Below are positions 3,092 to 20,529 of a DNA stretch of 64,000 nt, piece after piece. The number at the start of each line of letters is the position of its first letter. The stretch's first letter is position 1. The DNA comes from Bacillota bacterium. Lineage in GTDB: Bacteria > Bacillota > Clostridia > DUPQ01. The position numbers were made by a program, and so were the translations under genes. The notes beneath the pieces are model-generated. The model saw only the letters and a list, made by a program, of their open reading frames with translations. It was not told where the DNA came from and searched no databases. The stretch spans positions 26,757-90,756 of the forward strand of contig DAINQB010000002.1 of assembly GCA_036743175.1 (NCBI GenBank). Direction: 5' to 3'.

Positions 3092-3889
3092 TTACCTTCC
3101 AGTCATGAACAGCAGGGCTGCTGCAAAAACAGTTGAAAATACAAGCAGCAGACTGTTGCCAAAAGATGTATTGAGATAAAACTCTCCTGCAGTAGGGTTG
3201 TTCAGCAAAAACCAGAATGCAGTCGCTATTACAATGATGACTGTAATGTATACAGCGCCCCTGTCCCTGACCGTTGATATCTTTCTTTTGAAAGTTTCCT
3301 CGTCTATTCTGAAGTACTGCTGCTCCATCCCGGTAAAGAGCTTATGAAGGTTGCCTCCCTTTTCAGCAGCAAACCGAATGCTTCTGCTAAGATATCTCAT
3401 GTCCTCACTGCTGCTTTCTTTTTCAAGGATTGAAAACGCCTTGATTATATCCATCCCGCCGTTTATCCTTCCAAGTGTTCTGTCAACAAGCGTTCCCAGA
3501 GGTCTTTCGATGCCTGCCTCTGACGTTTTTCTAAGACAGAACACCATGTCGTTCCTTACTGCGCTCCATTTTGACATTGTCATAAGAAAGTATGTAATTT
3601 GGCAGGACTCCTTGTTCTGCCTTGCCCGTGAAACCATGTCAAAGGCACCATATACACAAAAAGCGGGTAACACTGAAATGGATATTGCAGCAGCAGTACT
3701 TCCTGTAACCAAATTGAAAATCATATAAGATACAACGAATGCAAATAAGGAGGCCAAGTATTCATTTTTCCTGTCAAAACGAATTCCAACGCCTTTGTTT
3801 CTTCCGGTAATCTTATCCCATATATCAGAATTGATATACACTGTGTATAAAACAAACACAGCAATGAGATTAATAACAAAATAAATCAT
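3092..3889 (-). CDS. tadB: TadB-like type II secretion system F-family membrane protein
   Basis: Paralogous to the following gene, with a T2SSF-like domain and N- and C-terminal TM segments. It sits immediately downstream of the CpaF ATPase. Confidence 0.75.
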   Translation of the reverse strand: MIYFVINLIAVFVLYTVYINSDIWDKITGRNKGVGIRFDRKNEYLASLFAFVVSYMIFNLVTGSTAAAISISVLPAFCVYGAFDMVSRARQNKESCQITYFLMTMSKWSAVRNDMVFCLRKTSEAGIERPLGTLVDRTLGRINGGMDIIKAFSILEKESSSEDMRYLSRSIRFAAEKGGNLHKLFTGMEQQYFRIDEETFKRKISTVRDRGAVYITVIIVIATAFWFLLNNPTAGEFYLNTSFGNSLLLVFSTVFAAALLFMTGR

Positions 3890-5070
3890 GGCATTTCCCT
3901 TTTGTAAATATTTTCATAATCAAGTTCCCGGCCGGTTGCTCCGAATACCGAAATGATCTCCATAACCTTGAATTGCTTCAGATAAACAACATAGTCAATG
4001 CCGGAGGCAGCGGATTCCATAAGTCTTTCAACGGAATCACCGGAACCGGCTCCTGCGGCAAGTGAAACTATCCTTCCTATGGCCTCACCGGCACTCTTTG
4101 AATGAATGGTTCCAAGCATTCTATGACCGGTGCATGATGCTTTTATGAACGAGTATGCCTCTTCGCCAACCAGTTCACCGACACAGTAAGTGTCAAGGGA
4201 CATTGTAAGTCCGTCCCTGACGAGTTTTTCAAGGGGAACAGGTTTGCCGCCTTCTTCAGGCCTCTTGGTTCTTTGCTCAATGCAGAAGGCCTTCTGCGGA
4301 TATATTTCAGCATCAGACTCTACAACCAGTACTCTTTCAAGTTCAGGCAGTCTATTGAGGAATGCCCTCATAAGTGTGGTTTTGCCTGCAGCTCCTTTCC
4401 CGCAGAACAGAATGCTTTGGCCGCTCTTCGAGAGTTCCGTCAGTATTTCAAAGGCCTTTTCATCAAGCATTCCGAGCATATGCAGGTCCTCCATTGTATA
4501 GGGAGAATGTCTGTGCTTCCTTATACTTATTGCCGGACCTGATACGTTGCGTGGTGGAATGGAAACATTTATTCTAAGATGTTTTTCCAGGTCAGCGGTC
4601 CTGCAGTGGGTATCATCTTCATTCAGGAACCCTCCGCTCCTTACCGCCACAAGACGGCAGTATGTCTCAAACGCCTTCATGCTGCCGAAATCAACATCAA
4701 TCCGCGACCTGATACCTAGACGTTTTATCGTGAATTCGTTGTATCTTGTTCCATCAATGTCACTGATGTCCTCATCATCTATGTATTTTTGCAGCACTCC
4801 GTAGCCGAACATGAAGTCGAATATACCTCTGATCAACTCATCCCTGTCAACTGAAAAATACAGGTTGTCCCTGTCCAGTATCCGAACTATTTCCCTGCGA
4901 AGGCCATCATTGTCATCCTTTGATCCAAATGCATTCATGACAAAGTAAGGTTTGTCCTCTATTATTTCCGCAGTTATTTTCATTGCGAGGCTTTCCGTTG
5001 AAACCGGCATTCCCGTTTTTTTCTCAACCATGCTGCTTACAGGCTCAAAAAGGGTTTTTACCAAAGGCAT
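3886..5070 (-). CDS. cpaF: CpaF/TadA secretion ATPase (VirB11/GspE family)
   Basis: Walker A reads GKGAAGKTT and Walker B reads LVVESDAEIY. The Asp box and His box are typical of TadA/CpaF. Confidence 0.9.
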   Translation of the reverse strand: MPLVKTLFEPVSSMVEKKTGMPVSTESLAMKITAEIIEDKPYFVMNAFGSKDDNDGLRREIVRILDRDNLYFSVDRDELIRGIFDFMFGYGVLQKYIDDEDISDIDGTRYNEFTIKRLGIRSRIDVDFGSMKAFETYCRLVAVRSGGFLNEDDTHCRTADLEKHLRINVSIPPRNVSGPAISIRKHRHSPYTMEDLHMLGMLDEKAFEILTELSKSGQSILFCGKGAAGKTTLMRAFLNRLPELERVLVVESDAEIYPQKAFCIEQRTKRPEEGGKPVPLEKLVRDGLTMSLDTYCVGELVGEEAYSFIKASCTGHRMLGTIHSKSAGEAIGRIVSLAAGAGSGDSVERLMESAASGIDYVVYLKQFKVMEIISVFGATGRELDYENIYKREMP

Positions 5071-6281
5071 CAGAACACCTCCAGTTTCTTCAAAGTCCTG
5101 GTCATATATTTACCACTTCGGCTTTTGTCCGATGGAATATAGGCGTTTCCGTTCCTGACCGCAGCTGCCCTCCCGGACTCAAAAGGCATGTTTCCAAGCC
5201 ATCTGATTTCAGATGACAGCCGTGCCATTGAGGGATCGGCAGCCTTGTCACTCAATCCATATCCCATAATATTGAGTCTCTTTGTATTTACTCCCTGCCG
5301 TCTCACAAAATGCAATGTAAGTGCATTGATTTTTCTTATATCAAAAGGGCCCTTTTCAACGGTGAAGATAATCTGGTCACATACAAAAAGTGATTCGATG
5401 AATATACTGTCATATGGAAACGGATTGCAGCATAAGACAATGGCATCATAACTGTTCTTCAATCTTCCGGAAATTTTTCTTATCAATCCATCAGAGCAGC
5501 CTTCATATGCATCAAAACTGTTCAGACATGGCAGTATATCGGGTTTACCGGGCTTGGAACCTGCTATGATTCCAAATCCATCTTCAATCCCCCCCTCAAA
5601 TCCGTATTCATGGGATGATCCGCTCATCTTCTTTATTCCCATCAGCATGTCAATCCCGGGAGCAAGTAAATCAAGGTCTGCAAGGAGAGTTTTGACATTG
5701 AGTGAAATGACTGATGCAATTTCACAGGCAAGAAAGGGGTTGCCCGGTATACATATAAGATAAGGATATGATTCAGCATCCTCTCCCCCGGTTTTTTTCC
5801 TGAGGAACCTTTGCAGCTCATTGGCCATCTCACTGGCAGATGAATACCTGTCCTTTGGAAGTTTCATCAAGGCTCTGTCTATCAATGGCCACATTCCCTT
5901 GTCAATGCCTTTCATGCTCCTGTCAAAGAGCTTCCTTGTCCTTCCTGTAAGACAGTAATGCATCAACTGACCCACTGAATAGATGTCGGATTGTTCCGTG
6001 GCTTCAAATCCCGCAAGTTTTTCCGGTGCGCAAAAACCAGACGATCCGTTTTCACCGGAGGTGGAACCGAAATCAATCAATATCGCTCTGTTTTCCCTTA
6101 TCATTATGTTGGAAGGTTTTATGTCTCCATGAATCATAGGAACGGGCCTTATGGAATGCATGTTAACAAGAATCCCAAGAAGATCCAGTATATAACCCAT
6201 GATTCTGAATTCCTCAGGTTTTTCATCCCTCAGGACATCCTCAAGGGTTCTGCCCTCGATCAGTTCCATTACAACAAACAA
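5070..6281 (-). CDS. Ser/Thr protein kinase-like domain fused to a TadZ/CpaE-like MinD-fold domain (atypical P-loop). The true N-terminus probably extends to about 6509.
   Basis: Hanks kinase motifs are present: VMELIEG, HGDIKPSNIM, DFGST and CAPE. The C-terminal 200 aa has a ParA/MinD-like fold (YDAIVLCCNPFPYDSIFIESLFVCDQIIFTVEK) with a degenerate Walker A (ICIPGNPFLACEIAS). The frame is open in-frame upstream to 6509 and encodes a kinase N-lobe, but it contains no ATG, GTG or TTG. The listed ORF starts at TTG 6281. Confidence 0.65.
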   Translation of the reverse strand: MFVVMELIEGRTLEDVLRDEKPEEFRIMGYILDLLGILVNMHSIRPVPMIHGDIKPSNIMIRENRAILIDFGSTSGENGSSGFCAPEKLAGFEATEQSDIYSVGQLMHYCLTGRTRKLFDRSMKGIDKGMWPLIDRALMKLPKDRYSSASEMANELQRFLRKKTGGEDAESYPYLICIPGNPFLACEIASVISLNVKTLLADLDLLAPGIDMLMGIKKMSGSSHEYGFEGGIEDGFGIIAGSKPGKPDILPCLNSFDAYEGCSDGLIRKISGRLKNSYDAIVLCCNPFPYDSIFIESLFVCDQIIFTVEKGPFDIRKINALTLHFVRRQGVNTKRLNIMGYGLSDKAADPSMARLSSEIRWLGNMPFESGRAAAVRNGNAYIPSDKSRSGKYMTRTLKKLEVF

Positions 6282-6585
6282 GGATGATTCCGTTTCAAAG
6301 GCATCATAGATTTCCGGAATACCGGGATGCCTGAGTTTTCTCAGGGATGAATAATCATTGGCTGAATTTCTGGCATTGCCCTTGATTTCCTTGACTATTC
6401 TTTCTGCTCCGGTAATCTCATCGTATGCAATATATACAACACGATTTTTATGTGATGAAATTTCCTTTAGTATTCGATATCTGTCATTCAGCTTTTTGAT
6501 GGTTTTGCCTCACTGGTATTTTTTGTCATTTATAAATTAACATATTTTACCATTTTGCGCAATACCTCTTCAATCATTTTTTTCT

Positions 6586-6613
6586 TTGAAACATTATGCA
6601 ACTATTGTATAAT
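6586..6613 (+). promoter_or_regulatory. sigma70 promoter with extended -10 (TTGAAA-N16-TGTATAAT) for the ECF-DUF62 operon
   Basis: TTGAAA lies at 6586-6591 and TGnTATAAT at 6606-6613. This is about 85 nt upstream of the ATG at 6699, which has an AAGGAGA RBS. Confidence 0.5.
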
Positions 6614-6698
6614 GGACACAGGAATTTATTACGAAGTCATAGGAGCTGGATGTCAATGACCGTGGTAAACTCAAATTATCATGAAGGAGACTATATAA

Positions 6699-7259
6699 AT
6701 GAAAAAATTATTCAAGGTTACAACGAAGACAATTGTTGCAACAGGTCTTGGGGCAGCCCTTTTTACACTGCTGTTCATGTGGGTGAAGATACCTTCCCCG
6801 ATCCCTGAGACAAGTTTCCAGACTGCATACGGACTCGGTGGTATGTTTGCTGCTTTGTTCGGTCCCATTGCCGGTGCACTCATAGCTTTCATAGGCCACG
6901 CACTCAGTGATGCAATCCAGTATGGATCACCATGGTGGAGCTGGGTCATTGCAAGTGGAGTAGCCGGTTTTGTATTTGGTTTTGCATATCTCAAGTGCAG
7001 GGCTGAAGAGGGAATATTCACATGGAAGGATGTCCTCAATTTCAATATCATCCAGATAATAGGTAATGTAATTGCCTGGATAATTGTAGCTCCTGTCCTT
7101 GACATAGTCATCTATGCCGAACCGGTGAACCTTGTATTCACACAGGGTGCAGTTGCATGCCTTATGAACGTAATAAGTGCAGGTGTATTTGGATCATTGC
7201 TTCTTTGGGCATATTCACTTACAAGAACCAAAAAGGGAAGCCTTAAGAAAGAGGACTAG
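6699..7259 (+). CDS. ECF transporter S component (substrate-capture subunit), substrate unknown
   Basis: A 186-aa protein with six predicted TM helices. It is followed directly by ecfA-ecfA' and ecfT, which is the arrangement of a dedicated group I ECF module. Confidence 0.7.
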   Translation: MKKLFKVTTKTIVATGLGAALFTLLFMWVKIPSPIPETSFQTAYGLGGMFAALFGPIAGALIAFIGHALSDAIQYGSPWWSWVIASGVAGFVFGFAYLKCRAEEGIFTWKDVLNFNIIQIIGNVIAWIIVAPVLDIVIYAEPVNLVFTQGAVACLMNVISAGVFGSLLLWAYSLTRTKKGSLKKED

Positions 7260-7267
7260 TTTACTTA

Positions 7268-8980
7268 ATGAAAAAAGAACCGATTATCGCGTTCCGTGGG
7301 TTTTCATTCCAATACTTCAGCCAGTCTGAGCCCACACTGCACGATATAAACCTGGAAATCAATCCGGGAGAGAAAATAATGATAGCAGGGCCCAGTGGCA
7401 GCGGAAAAAGCACCCTGGGCCATTGCTTGAATGGACTTATTCCCTTTGCTTACAAAGGAGAAATTTCCGGGAGCCTGCAAGTCGGCGGAACAGAAACCCG
7501 GGATATGGATATCTTCACACTTTCAAAGACTCTTGGTACTGTTCTTCAGGATGCAGATGGTCAGTTCGTGGGACTGACCGTAGGTGAAGACATCGCTTTT
7601 TCAATGGAGAATGACAGGATACCCCAGTCAGAGATGAAGGAACGTGTAAGGAAGGTCGCAAAGATGGTTGACATGGACAGGTGGCTCACCAACTCTCCAT
7701 ATGAATTATCCGGAGGCCAGAAACAACGGACTGAGCTGGCAGGCGTCATGATAGATGACGTTGATGTGCTGCTCTTTGATGAGCCCCTTGCCAACCTTGA
7801 CCCAGCCACCGGAAGACAGGCCATTGAAATCATTGATGACATCCACAGGGAATCCGGAAAAACAATCATAATAATTGAACACAGGCTTGAGGATGTCCTC
7901 CACAGGCCCATTGACAGAATCATTGTTCTTGATGAGGGGCGGATTGCAGCCGACATGAATCCCCATGAATTGATTTCCTCAGCGATTCTCAAGGAAACCG
8001 GGATTCGTGAACCTCTTTATGTAACTGCACTGAAGTTTGCAGGTGTGAAGGTTACCCCAGAAATGAAGCCGGGACACATTACGACACTTTCCATCAATGA
8101 TGATGAAAAAGAAGCAGTAAAGCTTTGGTACCAGTCAGTGGAACCGGATTTCCCGCCGATATCCAATGACAATGTACTTGAACTGGAAGGCATTTCCTTC
8201 AGCTATGATGAAGGAGTGGAGGTTCTGCATGATGTCAGTTTTGGAATCAGGCAGGGTGAAATGCTGTCATTGGTGGGAATGAACGGAGCCGGCAAGTCCA
8301 CCATCGCAAAACTGATGTGCGGATTCGAGAAAGAAAGCAAGGGGCGGATCCTTTATATGGGAGATGATATCGCAGATGAAAGCATCAAGGAGAGAGCCGA
8401 GAGAATAGGCTATGTGATGCAAAATCCAAATCAGATGCTTTCACAGCCCATGATCTTTGATGAAGTTGCACTGGGACTTAAACTCAGGAACCTGCCTGAA
8501 GAGGAAATTGACATAAGGGTACGAAAGGCGCTGGAAATCTGCGGGTTGCTTCCCTTCATCAAATGGCCTGTATCTGCATTAAGCTACGGTCAGAAGAAAA
8601 GGGTTACCATAGCTGCAATACTCGCCCTTGACCCGAAGCTGATTATCCTGGATGAACCGACGGCAGGACAGGATTACAGACATTATACAGAAATCATGGA
8701 ATTTCTAAGGACCATAAACCATTCCGGTGTTACAGTTCTTATGATTACCCATGATATGCATCTTATGCTGGAATACACAGCAAGGTCATTGGTTGTCACT
8801 GATGGTCGTCTGATATGTGACCAGCCTGCTTCCGTTGTTCTTACTACACAGGAGGTAATTGAATCAGCCAATCTGAAGGAAACATCATTGTTCACGCTGG
8901 CACAGATGGTTGGAATAGACGACGAAACATCATTTGTACAAAGATTCATAGATTATGAAAGGCAGGTGGAGAAAAAATGA
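7268..8980 (+). CDS. ecfA: ECF transporter ATPase, fused tandem ABC domains (EcfA-EcfA')
   Basis: There are two Walker A motifs (GPSGSGKST and GMNGAGKST), two LSGGQ-type signatures (LSGGQKQR and LSYGQKKR) and two Walker B motifs. Confidence 0.9.
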   Translation: MKKEPIIAFRGFSFQYFSQSEPTLHDINLEINPGEKIMIAGPSGSGKSTLGHCLNGLIPFAYKGEISGSLQVGGTETRDMDIFTLSKTLGTVLQDADGQFVGLTVGEDIAFSMENDRIPQSEMKERVRKVAKMVDMDRWLTNSPYELSGGQKQRTELAGVMIDDVDVLLFDEPLANLDPATGRQAIEIIDDIHRESGKTIIIIEHRLEDVLHRPIDRIIVLDEGRIAADMNPHELISSAILKETGIREPLYVTALKFAGVKVTPEMKPGHITTLSINDDEKEAVKLWYQSVEPDFPPISNDNVLELEGISFSYDEGVEVLHDVSFGIRQGEMLSLVGMNGAGKSTIAKLMCGFEKESKGRILYMGDDIADESIKERAERIGYVMQNPNQMLSQPMIFDEVALGLKLRNLPEEEIDIRVRKALEICGLLPFIKWPVSALSYGQKKRVTIAAILALDPKLIILDEPTAGQDYRHYTEIMEFLRTINHSGVTVLMITHDMHLMLEYTARSLVVTDGRLICDQPASVVLTTQEVIESANLKETSLFTLAQMVGIDDETSFVQRFIDYERQVEKK

Positions 8981-9810
8981 GAACAGGCTTCTTCACCGCC
9001 CAGAAATCCGATTCACCGATACACAGGCTTTCAGGATTCACAAAGCTCATATGCTTCCTTATTCTGACCGGAGCAGTAATGTATTCATATGACCTGCGTG
9101 TGATTCTTTGTGTCATGGTATTTTCATTCATCATACTGAAGATATCAAAGATACGGTTCAGCCAGATTAAACTGATGGTGATATATGTAGTCGTATTCCT
9201 TGCCATAAATGCAATACTGACCTTTCTTTTTTCTCCGGGATACGGTACCGAAATCTATGGCACACGGCATGTCCTTTTGAAATTATTCGGAAGATATGAC
9301 ATAACTGCAGAAACGCTTTTCTTCATTGCTACTAAGTTCATGAAGTACTCTTCCGTTATCCCGCTTGGTATGATATTCCTGCTTACTACTGACCCCAGCG
9401 AGCTGGCATCTTCACTGAATGCCGTCGGAGTACATTACAAGATTGCATTTTCCTTCTCACTTACACTGAGGTACTTTCCTGATATTCAAAGGGACTACCG
9501 GGATATTTCCCAGGCACAGCAGGCAAGGGGTCTTGAGATGTCTGGTAAGGCCAGGATGTGGGACAGGTTCAAAAGGGCACTTGCAATTTTGCTGCCATTG
9601 ATTCTATCAACACTCGATAGAATAGAGACAATAACCAACGCAATGGATCTGAGGGGTTTTGGAAAACACAGGAAAAGAACGTGGTACAGCAGGAAGAGGA
9701 TGACCAGGGCTGATTTCATTGCACTTGCAGTTTCACTTATTATCCTTTCGGCAACACTTTTGGTTGCATTTTTCATTAACAATGGAAGGTTCTACAATCC
9801 CTTCATTTAG
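8977..9810 (+). CDS. ecfT: ECF transporter transmembrane component EcfT (CbiQ family)
   Basis: A polytopic membrane protein with the C-terminal coupling helices typical of EcfT. It overlaps the ecfA stop in an ATGA junction. Confidence 0.85.
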   Translation: MRTGFFTAQKSDSPIHRLSGFTKLICFLILTGAVMYSYDLRVILCVMVFSFIILKISKIRFSQIKLMVIYVVVFLAINAILTFLFSPGYGTEIYGTRHVLLKLFGRYDITAETLFFIATKFMKYSSVIPLGMIFLLTTDPSELASSLNAVGVHYKIAFSFSLTLRYFPDIQRDYRDISQAQQARGLEMSGKARMWDRFKRALAILLPLILSTLDRIETITNAMDLRGFGKHRKRTWYSRKRMTRADFIALAVSLIILSATLLVAFFINNGRFYNPFI

Positions 9811-9837
9811 GGTAAATCATATACAGGAGGATGACCT

Positions 9838-10686
9838 ATGAAATCACTTATGGTTTTTCAAACGGATTTTACATACAAGGAAGGTGCGGTTTGTGCAATG
9901 TACGGGGTAGTCAAGAGTGTCGACCGGGAACTTGAGATTCTCGACGGAACCCATGAAATCCCTCAGTATGATACATGGAGTGCTTCCTACAGGCTGTATC
10001 AGTCAATGAAGTTCTGGCCCCGGGACACGGTTTTTGTTTCAGTCGTGGACCCCGGTGTAGGTACTCCCAGAAAGGCATCAGTTGCAAGAACCAGTGACGG
10101 TTACTATGTGGTTACTCCGGACAACGGCTCACTGACCCACCTGAAGAGACTTGCAGGGATTGAAGAAATACGCGAAATAGATGAAAGGATAAACAGGCTC
10201 AGGGGAAAAGGGACAGAGGAAGTTGCAATTTTCCATGGCCGGGATGTATTCGCATATTGCGGAGCAAGGCTCGCTGCCGGAATCATCAGTTTTGAGGAAG
10301 TCGGTCCATCATATCCGGTTGATGAAATAGTAGAGCACGAGATGCATAAACCGGAAATTTCCATGAACAGTGTCAGTGGCATAATAGAAATACCTGATCC
10401 AAACTTCGGCAACTCCTGGACAAATATCCCTCTCAAGGATTTCAGAACAGCTGGTTTTGAATATGGAGATATGGTTGACGTAGTTATAAAGAACAAGGAT
10501 GATGTGGTCTTTGATAAGAAAATCCTTTTCCACCAATCATTTGGGTTCGCACAAAAGGGTCAGCCGATGATATATAACAATGAACTCATGAACATTGCCT
10601 TTGCGGTCAACCAGGGAAGTTTCCTTGAAACTTATGGTATAGGTTATGGCAGTGACTGGACTGTCCGGTTCACAAAGGAGATATGA
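9838..10686 (+). CDS. SAM hydroxide adenosyltransferase family protein (DUF62, fluorinase/chlorinase-like fold), copy 1
   Basis: Hallmark motifs are present: FQTDFTYKEG, VFVSVVDPGVGT and FHGRDVFAY. The protein is 282 aa long, which is canonical for this family. Confidence 0.85.
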   Translation: MKSLMVFQTDFTYKEGAVCAMYGVVKSVDRELEILDGTHEIPQYDTWSASYRLYQSMKFWPRDTVFVSVVDPGVGTPRKASVARTSDGYYVVTPDNGSLTHLKRLAGIEEIREIDERINRLRGKGTEEVAIFHGRDVFAYCGARLAAGIISFEEVGPSYPVDEIVEHEMHKPEISMNSVSGIIEIPDPNFGNSWTNIPLKDFRTAGFEYGDMVDVVIKNKDDVVFDKKILFHQSFGFAQKGQPMIYNNELMNIAFAVNQGSFLETYGIGYGSDWTVRFTKEI

Positions 10687-11528
10687 CCATGAAGAAATTA
10701 TTGGTTTTTCAAAGTGACTTCGGTCTTGTTGACGGTGCTGTTGCAGCAATGTACGGAGTTGCCTTTGAAATAGATGAAAATCTAAGGGCATACAATCTCA
10801 CTCACGATATACCTCCATATAACGTATGGGAAGCATCTTACAGACTTTTTCAGGCAATGGAATACTGGCCCAGGGAAACGGTCTTTGTTTCCGTGGTGGA
10901 TCCCGGAGTCGGAAGCGGAAGGAAGAGTGTGGTAGCAAGAACAGTAAAGGACCAGTACGTGGTCACCCCTGACAATGGAACGCTGACACACCTTAAAAAA
11001 TATGTCGGCATCGCCAAAGTAAGGGAAATTGAGGAAAGCAGACACAGGCGGAAGGAATCAGAGCACTCACATACATTCCATGGCCGGGACGTCTATGCAT
11101 ATACAGGAGCAAAACTGGCTTCGGGCATCATATCATTTGAGGAAGTAGGTCCGGAACTGGATACCAATGGAATCATTGAACTTGAAACAGGCGATGTCAC
11201 AGTTTCAAGCGACAGTATAACCGGTTCAATAGACATTCTGGATGTGCGGTTCGGGTCTCTTTGGACAAATATCTCAAGGGAGGATTTCCTTGGACTTGGA
11301 TTCCAGTATGGAGACAAGGTCGAAGTTATAATCAGAAACGGTTCAAGAACCATATACAACAACAGGATCAGATTCGGAAAATCCTTTGCAGATGTTTATA
11401 TCAGTGAACAGATAATATATGTAAATTCGTTGTATAGGATGGCAATTGCAATAAACCAGGGCAATTTTGCAAAGGCATACAATATATCAACTGATCCCAG
11501 CTGGACAGTGGAGTTCAGGAAAGTATAG
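10683..11528 (+). CDS. SAM hydroxide adenosyltransferase family protein (DUF62), copy 2
   Basis: It carries FQSDFGLVDG, VFVSVVDPGVGS and FHGRDVYAY, and is a paralogue of the preceding gene. The two genes overlap by 4 nt. Confidence 0.85.
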   Translation: MTMKKLLVFQSDFGLVDGAVAAMYGVAFEIDENLRAYNLTHDIPPYNVWEASYRLFQAMEYWPRETVFVSVVDPGVGSGRKSVVARTVKDQYVVTPDNGTLTHLKKYVGIAKVREIEESRHRRKESEHSHTFHGRDVYAYTGAKLASGIISFEEVGPELDTNGIIELETGDVTVSSDSITGSIDILDVRFGSLWTNISREDFLGLGFQYGDKVEVIIRNGSRTIYNNRIRFGKSFADVYISEQIIYVNSLYRMAIAINQGNFAKAYNISTDPSWTVEFRKV

Positions 11529-11530
11529 AC

Positions 11531-12697
11531 TCAGTATCTTCCATAGGTCCTGGCGGTTTCAACCATTGCATGGATATTCTCAAAGGGAGTATCCCTTCCG
11601 CACTGGTCTCCAGTTGAAAGTATGAATCTGCCTCCTTCGGCAGCGTCGTCAATTGCGGCTTTACAGGCATCAACAACCTGCTTTGTTGTCCCATGCAGCA
11701 TAATATCAGTGGTATGAAGATTTCCCTTCAGTACCAGCTCATGTCCAAATTCTCTTTTCAGATCCCTGAGATTACAGTCTCCCATCGGTGAGATTTCAAG
11801 AGGGTCTATTACTGTCAGATCGGTCTCCTCGGCACAAATCCTGACCAGCTCCTTTTCAGGACCGCATGAATGAACATGAGATGGGATGCCGTGATCCTTA
11901 CATAGTTTTGCAATATGCTTTACAATTGGAAGTCCCAGGTCCCTGAAGATTTCCGGAGTCTGGAATACAAGGGTTCCGCTTGCTCCTGTGCAGATGAAAT
12001 CCGGAGGTTCTTGAAGCTCCATCAGCCAATTGAATCTTTTTGTAAACAACTCGATTTTCCTATCCCTTAATTCCCTGTATTTATTTGGATTATCATAATA
12101 CTCATATATCTGCGAAGGATTTCCAAGCAAGGCGGATGTACCACAGAAAACTCCAACCAAGCCCTGGATGCCCATTTTTCTCTTAACTGCTGCAAGAAGC
12201 TCAGCGCTTCTGTACTCTTTTTTAACATCATGGATTCTTATGGGATTAACGGGAGTCCGGGAAAGACCTATGGATTCAGGATCAAGCCTGTGTGTCGGTG
12301 GGTTGTCCCTGTAATATACTGTGACGGTATCTTCCCATGCCCTATTGTGAGTTTTGGACCTGCTAAGGTCATATCTCTGGGTTACTATTCTCTCATCATT
12401 TTGGAAAACTATCATCTCTTCCATGTTGTCTTCATATTCATCATGCATACGGACCGGAGCATACCCGTCCATAAGGGAATCAATGTCAAAATACTTTGCA
12501 GCATCAATATATGCCATATATATCGGGGGATCCTTGTAAAGATACAGCTGCCAGAAGGGTTTGCCTGTCAGCTTTGCAGGAATCATGTTTGATATGTCCG
12601 GAGCAACAGGAACACAGTCGGGAATACTACCAACAAGCGTAATTTCCAGTCTTTTCCTTGAATTCATTCTGTCCATATCCGTTAACCTCTGTTCCAT
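11531..12697 (-). CDS. uroporphyrinogen decarboxylase (URO-D) family protein, MtaA/CmuA-like methyltransferase fold
   Basis: The 388-aa protein has a URO-D-like TIM-barrel signature. It is paralogous to 49386-50420 and 61530-62675. Confidence 0.65.
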   Translation of the reverse strand: MEQRLTDMDRMNSRKRLEITLVGSIPDCVPVAPDISNMIPAKLTGKPFWQLYLYKDPPIYMAYIDAAKYFDIDSLMDGYAPVRMHDEYEDNMEEMIVFQNDERIVTQRYDLSRSKTHNRAWEDTVTVYYRDNPPTHRLDPESIGLSRTPVNPIRIHDVKKEYRSAELLAAVKRKMGIQGLVGVFCGTSALLGNPSQIYEYYDNPNKYRELRDRKIELFTKRFNWLMELQEPPDFICTGASGTLVFQTPEIFRDLGLPIVKHIAKLCKDHGIPSHVHSCGPEKELVRICAEETDLTVIDPLEISPMGDCNLRDLKREFGHELVLKGNLHTTDIMLHGTTKQVVDACKAAIDDAAEGGRFILSTGDQCGRDTPFENIHAMVETARTYGRY

Positions 12698-12833
12698 TAT
12701 ATATACTTTTCCACAAACATATGTGGATATCCATGTAAATCCTGTGCAAAGATTCGTCTCAAAACATTAAATACTGCATTTTATGTGGAAAACCTGTTTG
12801 TATCCTTGTATATCCTGTTCACATCAAATAATC

Positions 12834-12894
12834 ACCTGTCAGGAAAATATTTTCCTGACAGGTAGATATTTTCCTGACAGGTAGATATTTTCTT
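12834..12894. repeat. palindrome/tandem array, copy a: a 30-bp perfect palindrome followed by three 19-bp-period units of the AGGAAAATATTTTCCT family
   Basis: Positions 12834-12863 form the perfect palindrome CCTGTCAGGAAAATATTTTCCTGACAGG. Three 16-bp units lie at 12841, 12860 and 12879: AGGAAAATATTTTCCT, AGGTAGATATTTTCCT and AGGTAGATATTTTCTT. Confidence 0.8.
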
Positions 12895-12898
12895 TTCA

Positions 12899-12926
12899 TG
12901 AAAAAAGAGCCCCGGTACCGGGGCCC
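12899..12926 (-). terminator. intrinsic terminator of the carbamate kinase gene
   Basis: A 16-bp GC palindrome (GCCCCGGTACCGGGGC, 12909-12924) is followed on the minus strand by TTTTTT. Confidence 0.7.
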
Positions 12927-12941
12927 CATGATTGCTATAAG

Positions 12942-18807: not shown

Positions 18808-20529
18808 CTATTCCTCTGTTTCAATAAATCCAAAACTGTTTACATCAAACAAACCCTTGTCAGTCAGCTTGATTTCCGGTATTACCGGGAGAGCAAGAAA
18901 TGAAAGCGTAATAAAGGGATCGAGATTCCTGCTGACCCCCAGGGAAAGGGCAATTTCATTCATTAGGTCTATCTTCTCCTCGACTTCCTCTATCGGAGAA
19001 TCGGTCATCAGTCCCCCGACTTCCAGTACAAGGGTTCCAAGTATTTTACCTCCGGAGGAAATTGTCATGCCACCCTTGCATTTCCTTAGCTCACTGACAG
19101 CTGCCAGCATATCCGTATCATTGTCCCCGATTACAATTATGTTATGTGAGTCATGTGCAATCGTCAGTGCAATTGCGCCATTCCTCAGACCGTATCCTTC
19201 AACCAGGCCAATCCCTATGTTACCTGTGCCCTTATGTCTTTCAATTACAGCAAGCTTCAGTATGTCAAGTTTTGGATTATTGCAATACAATCCGTTCTTT
19301 GTTTCTACCTTCCTTATGACTTTCTTTGTGACTATGTTGTCACTTACAATCTGAATCACCTTTACAATGTCAGATTCAAGAGGCATGTCGAAATTGATCT
19401 CCATGCCTTTTTTCAGCCTGACAGTATCAAGGACCCTTTCATCTTTATATGGAGGTGCCTCGAAAAGGGCAATTCCTTCCTCTGCCACCAGTTTCCCTGC
19501 CTTGAAAACCTTGTCAACCTCGAATGCTTCAAGATCATTCAGAACAACCATGTCCGCCTTGAAACCCGGTGCAATTGCTCCCCTGTCAGAAAGACTGTAG
19601 CACTCGGCTGTATTCAAGGTTGCCATTGTAATTGCTTCAATGGCATTGATACCGTTTCTGACCGCCTTTTTGACATTGAAATTGATATGTCCTTCATTCT
19701 TGATGTTCTTCGGATGCTTGTCGTCCGTACAGAACATAATCCTCCGCAGGTTATTTCTATTTACACCTTTTATCAGTGTCTTGAGATTCCTTGTTGCCGA
19801 TCCCTCCCTGATATGTATGTACATTCCTTTGCTTAATTTCTCTGTCATTTCCTCAACGGTTGTACACTCATGGTCAGTTCGTACTCCTGTCGAAATATAT
19901 GCATTAAGGTCTTTGCCCGTCAATCCCGGTGAATGTCCGTCAATCCTCACTTCCTTGAAGTCCTCAAGCTTCCGGTGAACATCCCTGTTTCCCCTGACAA
20001 CACCCGGATAATTCATCATTTCACCCAACCCCAGTACCCTGTCCCTTTTCTTCAAAGGAACAAGATCATCTGCGGTAAGGATTGCTCCGGAATTTTCAAA
20101 ATCAGTGGAAGGGACACAGGAAGGAAGCATTATGAAAACATCCAGTGGAAGCTCCTCGCTGCTGTCCAGCATGAATTCAATTCCTGCAATACCACAGACA
20201 TTTGCTATTTCGTGGGGATCCGCCACTACTGTGGTGGTCCCCTTCACGATTACGGACTTTGCAAACTGCGGAGGGGTGAGCATTGAAGATTCAATATGAA
20301 CATGTCCGTCTATGAAACCGGGACTGACATATTTCCCCTGTACATCAATTTCAATTTTTCCATGGTACTCACCGACACCTGCAATATATCCATCATATAC
20401 TGCTATGTCCCCACGGTCTATTTCACCCGTAAAGACATTGACTACCATACAGTTCTTCAAAACCAGGTCTGCCTTTGCGTCTCCCCTTGCCACCTTGACC
20501 ATCTGAATTGTATTCATGATATCCTCCAA
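18808..20529 (-). CDS. ade: adenine deaminase
   Basis: A 573-aa amidohydrolase with the HxH metal motif (GFIDGHVHIESS). It has the length and architecture of AdeC-type adenine deaminase. Confidence 0.85.
   Translation of the reverse strand: MEDIMNTIQMVKVARGDAKADLVLKNCMVVNVFTGEIDRGDIAVYDGYIAGVGEYHGKIEIDVQGKYVSPGFIDGHVHIESSMLTPPQFAKSVIVKGTTTVVADPHEIANVCGIAGIEFMLDSSEELPLDVFIMLPSCVPSTDFENSGAILTADDLVPLKKRDRVLGLGEMMNYPGVVRGNRDVHRKLEDFKEVRIDGHSPGLTGKDLNAYISTGVRTDHECTTVEEMTEKLSKGMYIHIREGSATRNLKTLIKGVNRNNLRRIMFCTDDKHPKNIKNEGHINFNVKKAVRNGINAIEAITMATLNTAECYSLSDRGAIAPGFKADMVVLNDLEAFEVDKVFKAGKLVAEEGIALFEAPPYKDERVLDTVRLKKGMEINFDMPLESDIVKVIQIVSDNIVTKKVIRKVETKNGLYCNNPKLDILKLAVIERHKGTGNIGIGLVEGYGLRNGAIALTIAHDSHNIIVIGDNDTDMLAAVSELRKCKGGMTISSGGKILGTLVLEVGGLMTDSPIEEVEEKIDLMNEIALSLGVSRNLDPFITLSFLALPVIPEIKLTDKGLFDVNSFGFIETEE

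Follow-up and report, generated by a model that had tools for sequence, protein, structure and literature searches.

A conserved energy-coupling factor transporter module with DUF62 enzymes and its possible link to S-adenosylmethionine uptake

The operon and its products

A 64,000-nt stretch of a Bacillota bacterium genome (contig DAINQB010000002.1; hereafter the window, whose numbering is used throughout) carries at 6586-11528, on the + strand, the operon studied here, which encodes an energy-coupling factor (ECF) transporter together with two enzymes of the DUF62 family. Translation yields five closely packed open reading frames (ORFs), all on the + strand and at the coordinates given by an earlier reading of the sequence, the first-pass annotation:

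6586..6613, +, sigma-70-type promoter TTGAAA-16-TATAAT, 11 of 12 consensus positions matched
About 85 nt after 6613, +, leader between the promoter and the S gene
6699..7259, +, S component of 186 aa, PF07155/COG4720, UPF0397-like subfamily (PF07155 154 bits)
7268..8980, +, fused A-A' ATPase of 570 aa (ABC_tran twice, joined by DUF3744; TIGR04520 393 bits)
8977..9810, +, T component of 277 aa, CbiQ family (CbiQ E 1e-27; ARG and LRG motifs)
9838..10686, +, DUF62 paralogue D1 of 282 aa (SAM_HAT_N and SAM_HAT_C)
10683..11528 (281 aa) or, more likely, 10689..11528 (279 aa), +, DUF62 paralogue D2 (SAM_HAT_N and SAM_HAT_C)

The first-pass annotation described a complete S, A-A', T module behind a strong promoter, and both descriptions hold. 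The transporter subunits are identified by Pfam and NCBIfam domains, and their motifs, read in translation, are intact, the Walker A, signature and Walker B sequences being GPSGSGKST, LSGGQ and LLFDEP in the first A-A' domain and GMNGAGKST, LSYGQ and IILDEP in the second. With a six-helix S fold, two intact ABC domains and a T component with two xRG motifs, all encoded by adjoining genes, the transporter has the make-up of a group I ECF system, i.e. one with a dedicated energising module. The promoter is the best sigma-70 match between 6000 and 13000, an interval in which promoter-like sites as a class show no enrichment (17 found against 14.4 expected). No Rfam family was detected in the 85-nt leader or in the rest of the window, at gathering thresholds or at E-values up to 10, and the leader sequence is not kept in the closest relatives. 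The junction sequence of A-A' and T is a true 4-nt ATGA overlap (8977-8980). An overlap of the same length had been proposed between D1 and D2, which applies only if D2 begins at ATG 10683; ATG 10689, 2 nt past the D1 stop, is favoured both by where a Shine-Dalgarno sequence lies (AAGGAG at 10675-10680) and by the N-terminal consensus of 25 D2 orthologues, and it leaves the two genes tightly packed all the same.

Both DUF62 genes are full-length, as had been annotated, with SAM_HAT_N and SAM_HAT_C matches at E-values from 6e-48 to 8.5e-20. Their products are 51% identical, and D1 matches PDB entry 2zbu with an E-value of 1e-33. The FHGRD motif noted in the first reading is conserved in both, as is PDNG, whereas the TDFG motif noted alongside it is in fact TDFT in D1 and SDFG in D2. 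The catalytic triad of PH0463 (D68/R75/H127) aligns to D71/R78/H133 in D1 and to D73/R80/H133 in D2, and this Asp-Arg-His triad is invariant in 47 D1 and 25 D2 orthologues; together with the ribose-binding Asp it is unchanged in all 72 copies. The triad has been described as a mark of DUF62 hydrolases that is lacking in the fluorinases and chlorinases of this fold (PMC10491745). D1 and D2 are predicted to be S-adenosylmethionine (SAM) hydroxide adenosyltransferases, converting SAM to adenosine and methionine. A fluorinase or chlorinase identity was rejected, since both proteins carry the hydrolase triad and score 66-92 bits with the fluorinase/chlorinase model TIGR04507, against a cut-off of 400.

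The paralogues fall into two separate groups, D1 orthologues being 58-85% identical to the window D1 and 41-51% to D2, and D2 orthologues 53-86% identical to the window D2, which makes the duplication old. Within the close subfamily D1 is a near-universal partner of the transporter and D2 a facultative one; D2 is the sole DUF62 partner in Clostridium grantii and in a subfamily whose S protein is about 50% identical to that of the window. Four Anaerolinea loci have, upstream of S, a third DUF62 type (∼31% identical) with the triad kept. At thirteen positions D1 and D2 have each fixed a different residue (e.g. TDFT versus SDFG and DPNFGN versus DVRFGS), differences that are compatible with, and no proof of, distinct substrate or epimer preferences. 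The structure-database search with D1 and D2 also matched PDB entry 7ccg_A, a DUF62 fold deposited as "DNA-directed RNA polymerase subunit delta", which has the C-terminal motifs FGNVWTNI and NQGSFLE in common with D1 and Tyr, Thr and Tyr in place of the triad; the deposited name is probably wrong, and the protein probably no hydrolase.

Conservation, regulation and surroundings of the module

Homologues of the S component were sought by pattern and tblastn in a set holding one genome for each GTDB species, and at least 585 were confirmed. The best 80 of these, with 69-92% identity, were taken with 10-kb flanks as a close set, and neighbours were counted in 54 species-representative loci of at least 12 kb, using tblastn with the window proteins and all-against-all ORF clustering. 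In these close loci A-A' and T are present in 54/54, S in 53/54 and DUF62 in 51/54 (74 copies), an adjacency rate of 94%, and one or two DUF62 genes adjoin the transporter where they occur. Linked modules occur in Bacillota, Chloroflexota and Spirochaetota and in three gene orders: S-AA'-T-D1(-D2) in the window, many Clostridia, Tissierellia and some spirochaetes, with Anaerolineae having D1 only; D2-AA'-T-D1-S in Christensenellaceae, Treponema and Bianqueaceae; and AA'-T-D1-S in rumen Clostridia. Lachnospiraceae also carry the module. Starting instead from D1 homologues in the cultured species Lacrimispora indolis and Faecalicatena contorta leads once more into the module, here ordered D2-[GNAT-GntR/UTRA fusion]-AA'-T-D1-S. 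Look-ups of metagenomic and isolate contigs, made independently, agree on the linkage, while the flanking genes change in every lineage. The association reaches further still: in a second set, of 80 metagenomic loci around S proteins ∼50% identical to that of the window, a fourth order (DUF62-S-AA'-T) is found in 8/16 non-redundant clusters.

The pairing of this S component with DUF62, first noticed in the window, is thus strongly confirmed across genomes. Because the linkage has been kept through repeated rearrangement over three phyla, it is strong evidence of functional coupling, and it supports a view of the ECF module and the DUF62 enzymes as what would be one functional unit. D1 distances, taken pairwise, correlate at r 0.61-0.70 with the distances of the transporter subunits S, A-A' and T, less strongly than those of the physically interacting S, A and T components correlate among themselves (0.89-0.91). 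Apart from a GntR/UTRA regulator (9 loci) and a GNAT protein (5 loci), the remaining recurrent "families" of the 54 loci are antisense shadow ORFs. The clustering yielded no metK, mtn, nucleosidase or deaminase gene as a conserved neighbour, and no recurring genes for methylthioadenosine (MTA) or methylthioribose salvage, for S-adenosylhomocysteine (SAH) or for homocysteine methylation. The window copy is an ordinary member of a widespread module. In Anaerolineae (L004:8558-8831, L015:10555-10763 and others) the gap between S and A-A' extends to 100-300 nt, with no Rfam match; in Clostridia it is 8-40 nt.

A second connection to SAM comes from RNA. Two operons of S-AA'-T homologues, in different species and both without DUF62, are preceded by SAM-I riboswitches (RF00162, gathering score 44.4): one at L094:4322-4422 (87.8 bits, E 3e-19), 137 nt upstream of S, the other at L102:5797-5898 (86.8 bits), in a promoter-aptamer-terminator-gene layout. 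A single-sequence nhmmer search for S-boxes matched these two loci alone, and Rfam confirmed both. The S protein of the first locus (P0125) is 49% identical to the window S and shares with it the polar and aromatic columns H67, D71, W79, W82, N123, D135, Y139, Q149 and N157, which are invariant over all seven aligned S sequences. SAM-I riboswitches on homologous operons tie the S family to SAM and methionine independently of the enzymes; with a SAM-cleaving enzyme in some operons and a SAM-sensing RNA on others, the family is connected to SAM/methionine homeostasis by two unrelated routes.

Some further features accompany the module elsewhere. A HutC-type GntR/UTRA regulator stands at its 5' end in at least 14 loci (e.g. 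L098/L099:3846-5339, L100:3821-5398, L035:8130-8864 and L074:14013-14810), fused to GNAT in Lachnospiraceae, and in five loci a stand-alone GNAT protein of ∼265 aa separates D1 from D2; the window has neither. Sequence conservation is higher in the S component than in the ATPase (mean pairwise distance 0.25 versus 0.32, 48 loci of L013-L092), which is unusual for ECF systems. PF07155 S-like domains also occur fused to HAMP and MCP domains, to adenylate/guanylate cyclase, to HD domains or to an A-A' ATPase (P0246, P0172, P0200 and P0166); given the fusions to MCP, cyclase and HD domains, the S fold seems to have been reused as a membrane ligand sensor. No S-DUF62 fusion was present among the S-domain fusions examined.

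Downstream of the operon, and convergent with it, lies a purine/xanthine catabolic cluster (12942-34170, - strand) with adenine deaminase, two xanthine dehydrogenase (XDH) sets, YgeW/YgeY-like genes and carbamate kinase. It begins 1.4 kb beyond D2, past a URO-D/MtaA-like gene. Two of the genes on this side bear on the operon:

11531-12697, -, URO-D/MtaA-like gene, the nearest opposite-strand gene, converging on the operon
18808-20529, -, adenine deaminase, 7 kb downstream of the operon

The first-pass annotation supposed that adenosine or adenine released by the DUF62 enzymes feeds this cluster, which it described as starting with adenine deaminase. The deaminase lies at neither end of the cluster, and the proposed feeding lacks support: the cluster runs towards the operon, the deaminase lies 7 kb away, and no URO-D-like, carbamate kinase, YgeW-like, adenine deaminase or XDH gene was found in 92 related loci. 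Among these loci are the relatives with the most similar S proteins (L013 and L014, 89-92% identical), and we rejected coupling to the cluster because this neighbourhood is not conserved in related loci.

Only 2 nt separate the D2 stop codon (+) from that of the URO-D/MtaA-like gene (-) (11526-11533), and no intrinsic terminator lies between them; the two convergent transcripts are bound to overlap or collide. The interval upstream of the URO-D/MtaA-like gene (12698-12941) holds a perfect 30-nt palindrome, ACCTGTCAGGAAAATATTTTCCTGACAGGT (12834-12863), overlapped by the tandem direct repeat CCTGACAGGTAGATATTTTC. The pair resembles an operator, and the GC-rich terminator of carbamate kinase adjoins it. 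On the other side of the operon, a Ser/Thr-kinase-like ORF (5070-6545, -) has a called TTG start and a C-terminal extension of ∼240 aa; a T2SSE/CpaF-like ATPase comes next (3886-5070). The kinase N-lobe runs on in frame upstream of the TTG, where there is no ATG, GTG or TTG, which could point to an unusual start codon or a decaying gene.

Candidate substrates and rival explanations

The genes and their conservation suggest a scheme of import followed by cleavage, in which the module would take up SAM or a near analogue and hydrolyse it in the cytoplasm to adenosine and methionine; we infer this only tentatively, and would put its chances a little below even. The dedicated group I importer, through its S component, would capture an adenosyl-sulfonium compound outside the cell, most likely SAM, which extracellularly is a mix of two sulfonium epimers, (S,S) and (R,S). 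One or two DUF62 hydrolases would then direct water at C5', releasing adenosine and L-methionine. What the cell gains could be methionine and a purine nucleoside; alternatively, if the enzymes share the (R,S) selectivity of the characterised ones, they would rid it of the inactive epimer that inevitably enters with usable SAM when extracellular SAM has aged. Riboswitch-controlled versions of the importer would be made at low SAM, and the two paralogues may serve different epimers or analogues, or form a mixed trimer. The molecule transported, the action of D1 and D2 on it and the reason for having both are all inferred. The first reading had suggested an S-adenosyl or 5'-deoxyadenosyl-type compound: the former gains from the SAM-I riboswitches, while the latter, like an MTA-type substrate, is chemically less likely because known DUF62 reactions depend on a sulfonium leaving group. 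The lack of a further conserved enzyme in the module would fit products that are universal metabolites. Characterised DUF62 enzymes do hydrolyse SAM and are selective for the (R,S) epimer.

Several observations weigh against SAM import. DUF62 is not adjacent in 3/54 close loci and in 8/16 of the clusters at ∼50% S identity. Because no riboswitch was found in the window operon or in 23 related loci tested, the S-box link comes from two loci of one clade. Compared with canonical DUF62 enzymes, D1 and D2 have an inserted residue in the C-terminal D-x-FGN motif and differ in several fixed Trp, so the true substrate may be an analogue of SAM. Free SAM outside cells is unstable and scarce, and importing a costly cofactor merely to hydrolyse it seems wasteful. 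NCBIfam and Pfam, moreover, label the S component a riboflavin transporter, and SAM hydrolysis has itself been doubted as the physiological role of all DUF62 enzymes (PMC12120602).

The riboflavin label leads to a rival explanation, in which S is the component of a riboflavin or other B-vitamin (e.g. B6) transporter and the DUF62 genes are unrelated passengers. The S protein indeed reaches 224 bits with NF010182 ("ECF-type riboflavin transporter substrate-binding protein"), whose cut-off is 99, in agreement with the name of PF07155; this score shows membership of PRK13661/UPF0397 and not riboflavin specificity, and we found no experimental basis for the name. RibU of S. aureus (3p5n) is the sole PDB sequence matched by a 37-sequence family profile (27.6 bits, E 1.6e-5), yet compared pairwise it gives just 13.8 bits (E 0.37), and HmpT (4hzu_S) has no sequence match by either route. 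An AlphaFold model of S (pLDDT 92, six helices) is matched by Foldseek with probability 1.00 to RibU, FolT, BioY, HmpT, PanT and ThiT alike, all at about the same level (TM 0.5-0.68, identity 13-20%), T. maritima RibU (TmRibU) being at the top. PF07155/COG4720 is also said to hold PdxU and PdxU2/HmpT (PMC9997740), a point in favour of this rival that also makes the family heterogeneous. Neither the window nor 25 related loci yielded a flavin mononucleotide (FMN) riboswitch (RF00050) or another vitamin riboswitch; SAM-I was the sole riboswitch seen. With a remote match to RibU, equal structural matches and no FMN riboswitch, we rejected a riboflavin, folate or B6 assignment, and the database label is unsupported; set against the characterised families, S does not cluster with RibU, FolT or BioY. 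A vitamin transporter would also leave the 94% DUF62 adjacency unexplained, and we regard this explanation as improbable.

A weightier rival, which we nevertheless consider fairly unlikely, holds that another metabolite of the methionine/SAM cycle is imported, such as a methionine precursor, MTA, SAH, S-ribosylhomocysteine or S-methylmethionine, in line with an old prediction for ECF systems of the Mts/Mta type, and that DUF62 only clears endogenous (R,S)-SAM, a repair activity documented for these enzymes. A SAM riboswitch on homologous operons would then signify membership of the methionine/SAM regulon and not the substrate, half of the more distant clusters lack an adjacent DUF62 gene, and both "methionine precursor" and "methylthioadenosine" appear among the ECF families of TCDB (PMC3654945). 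A housekeeping enzyme would, however, not be expected to stay by one transporter through three gene orders and three phyla, or to duplicate within the module; none of the salvage, SAH or homocysteine-methylation genes recurs beside it, and the thioethers MTA and SAH lack the leaving group used by DUF62 chemistry. The nearby purine/xanthine cluster, for which adenosine, the predicted DUF62 product, would be a feedstock, could make the module part of a catabolic island supplying purine fermentation. This is very improbable, as the cluster genes tested occur in 0/92 related loci, flanks vary by lineage, the cluster is convergent with the operon, and ECF importers are low-capacity micronutrient systems ill-suited to feeding a fermentation. 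It is equally hard to credit that D1 and D2 are not metabolic enzymes here but serve the transporter as accessory or regulatory subunits that sense SAM or adenosine, or that they detoxify a toxic adenosine analogue taken up by the cell. The tight packing of the operon, the correlation of D1 distances with those of the transporter subunits and the use of S-like domains as sensors in chemoreceptors and cyclases would suit such a role; the triad and ribose-binding Asp, invariant in 72 copies, argue for catalysis, the correlation is clearly below that among S, A and T, and PADLOC finds nothing. A role in anti-phage defence was likewise rejected, PADLOC giving generic ABC ATPase similarity alone.

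If SAM import is correct, an orphan ECF family (PF07155/UPF0397-like) now labelled "riboflavin" would gain a substrate in at least 585 GTDB species-representative genomes. Its carriers include Lachnospiraceae, Christensenellaceae, Tissierellia, Anaerolineae and Treponema, many of them abundant in the gut or in digesters, and a SAM/methionine cross-feeding route in such organisms would be relevant to community metabolism and to the delivery of SAM-analogue drugs. The module also bears on the physiological role of DUF62 SAM hydrolases, questioned previously (PMC12120602), and on whether free-living bacteria import SAM at all. In its fullest form, which we think rather unlikely as a whole, the proposal is that this would be the first ECF-type SAM importer, widespread in free-living and gut anaerobes, that handling imported, partly racemised SAM would be the physiological role, long debated, of bacterial DUF62 enzymes, and that D1 and D2 would divide the epimers between them or form a mixed trimer. 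Substrate, DUF62 role and SAM uptake in free-living bacteria can all be tested with one small gene set.

Comparison with known systems

The operon architecture of S, a fused A-A' ATPase with DUF3744 and T is that of the group I systems with a duplicated ATPase, YkoEDC, MtsTUV, HtsTUV, MtaTUV and CbrTUV (TCDB 3.A.1.29-33, with MtsTUV at.29, HtsTUV at.31 and MtaTUV at.33). TCDB has uncharacterised ECF families named "methionine precursor", "unknown-ABC1" and "methylthioadenosine" (PMC3654945), which go back to Rodionov et al. 2009. SEED has a "predicted methylthioadenosine ECF transporter", TTE1586/TTE1589, a gene numbering that would fit the order AA'-T-DUF62-S and may represent this very module. 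Our module may thus correspond to one of the predicted Mts/Mta/HtsTUV systems. RibU (S. aureus 3P5N, T. maritima 5KBW) has the six-helix S fold in common with the window S, but with 13-20% identity is structurally no closer to it than FolT or BioY; the window S also has no FMN riboswitch and comes with a dedicated energising module, whereas that of RibU is shared.

The enzymes have the same two-domain fold as PH0463, MJ1651, Salinispora DUF62 and the Sulfolobus and Haloferax SAM hydrolases (SAMH), with E-values from 1e-24 to 1e-38 to PDB entries, and share the triad, FHGRD and PDNG with PH0463-type hydrolases. They differ from known DUF62 hydrolases in the extra D-x-FGN residue and in subfamily-specific Trp, and fall far under the NCBIfam equivalog cut-offs (95-135 bits against 350-470). 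With 51% identity between them but only 84-136 bits to any solved DUF62 hydrolase, D1 and D2 form an ECF-linked clade of their own. An archaeal DUF62 enzyme sits in a TTM/NMNAT operon, where, unlike D1 and D2, it has no transporter beside it.

The searchable literature yielded nothing linking ECF transporters with DUF62 or with SAM uptake. SAM carriers are known in Rickettsia and Chlamydia (PMC3104491), and bacterial SAM uptake has so far been described for obligate intracellular parasites only (bioRxiv 2025.08.13.670177). A precedent for import followed by cleavage is QueK-QrtT-QueL of Clostridioides difficile, in which an ECF S component is encoded with a hydrolase that cleaves the imported nucleoside (PMC11477304). 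QrtT uses a shared ECF core, whereas the window module has its private A-A' and T; the S and enzyme families both differ, and the QueK-QrtT-QueL operon, unlike ours, is controlled by a preQ1 riboswitch. In yeast SAM3/SAM4 and MMP1/MHT1 and in E. coli mmuP/mmuM, the gene for a SAM or S-methylmethionine permease adjoins that for an enzyme disposing of (R,S)-SAM. These pairs belong to unrelated families (APC/DMT permeases and homocysteine methyltransferases), and their functional logic is the one that would operate in the ECF-DUF62 module.

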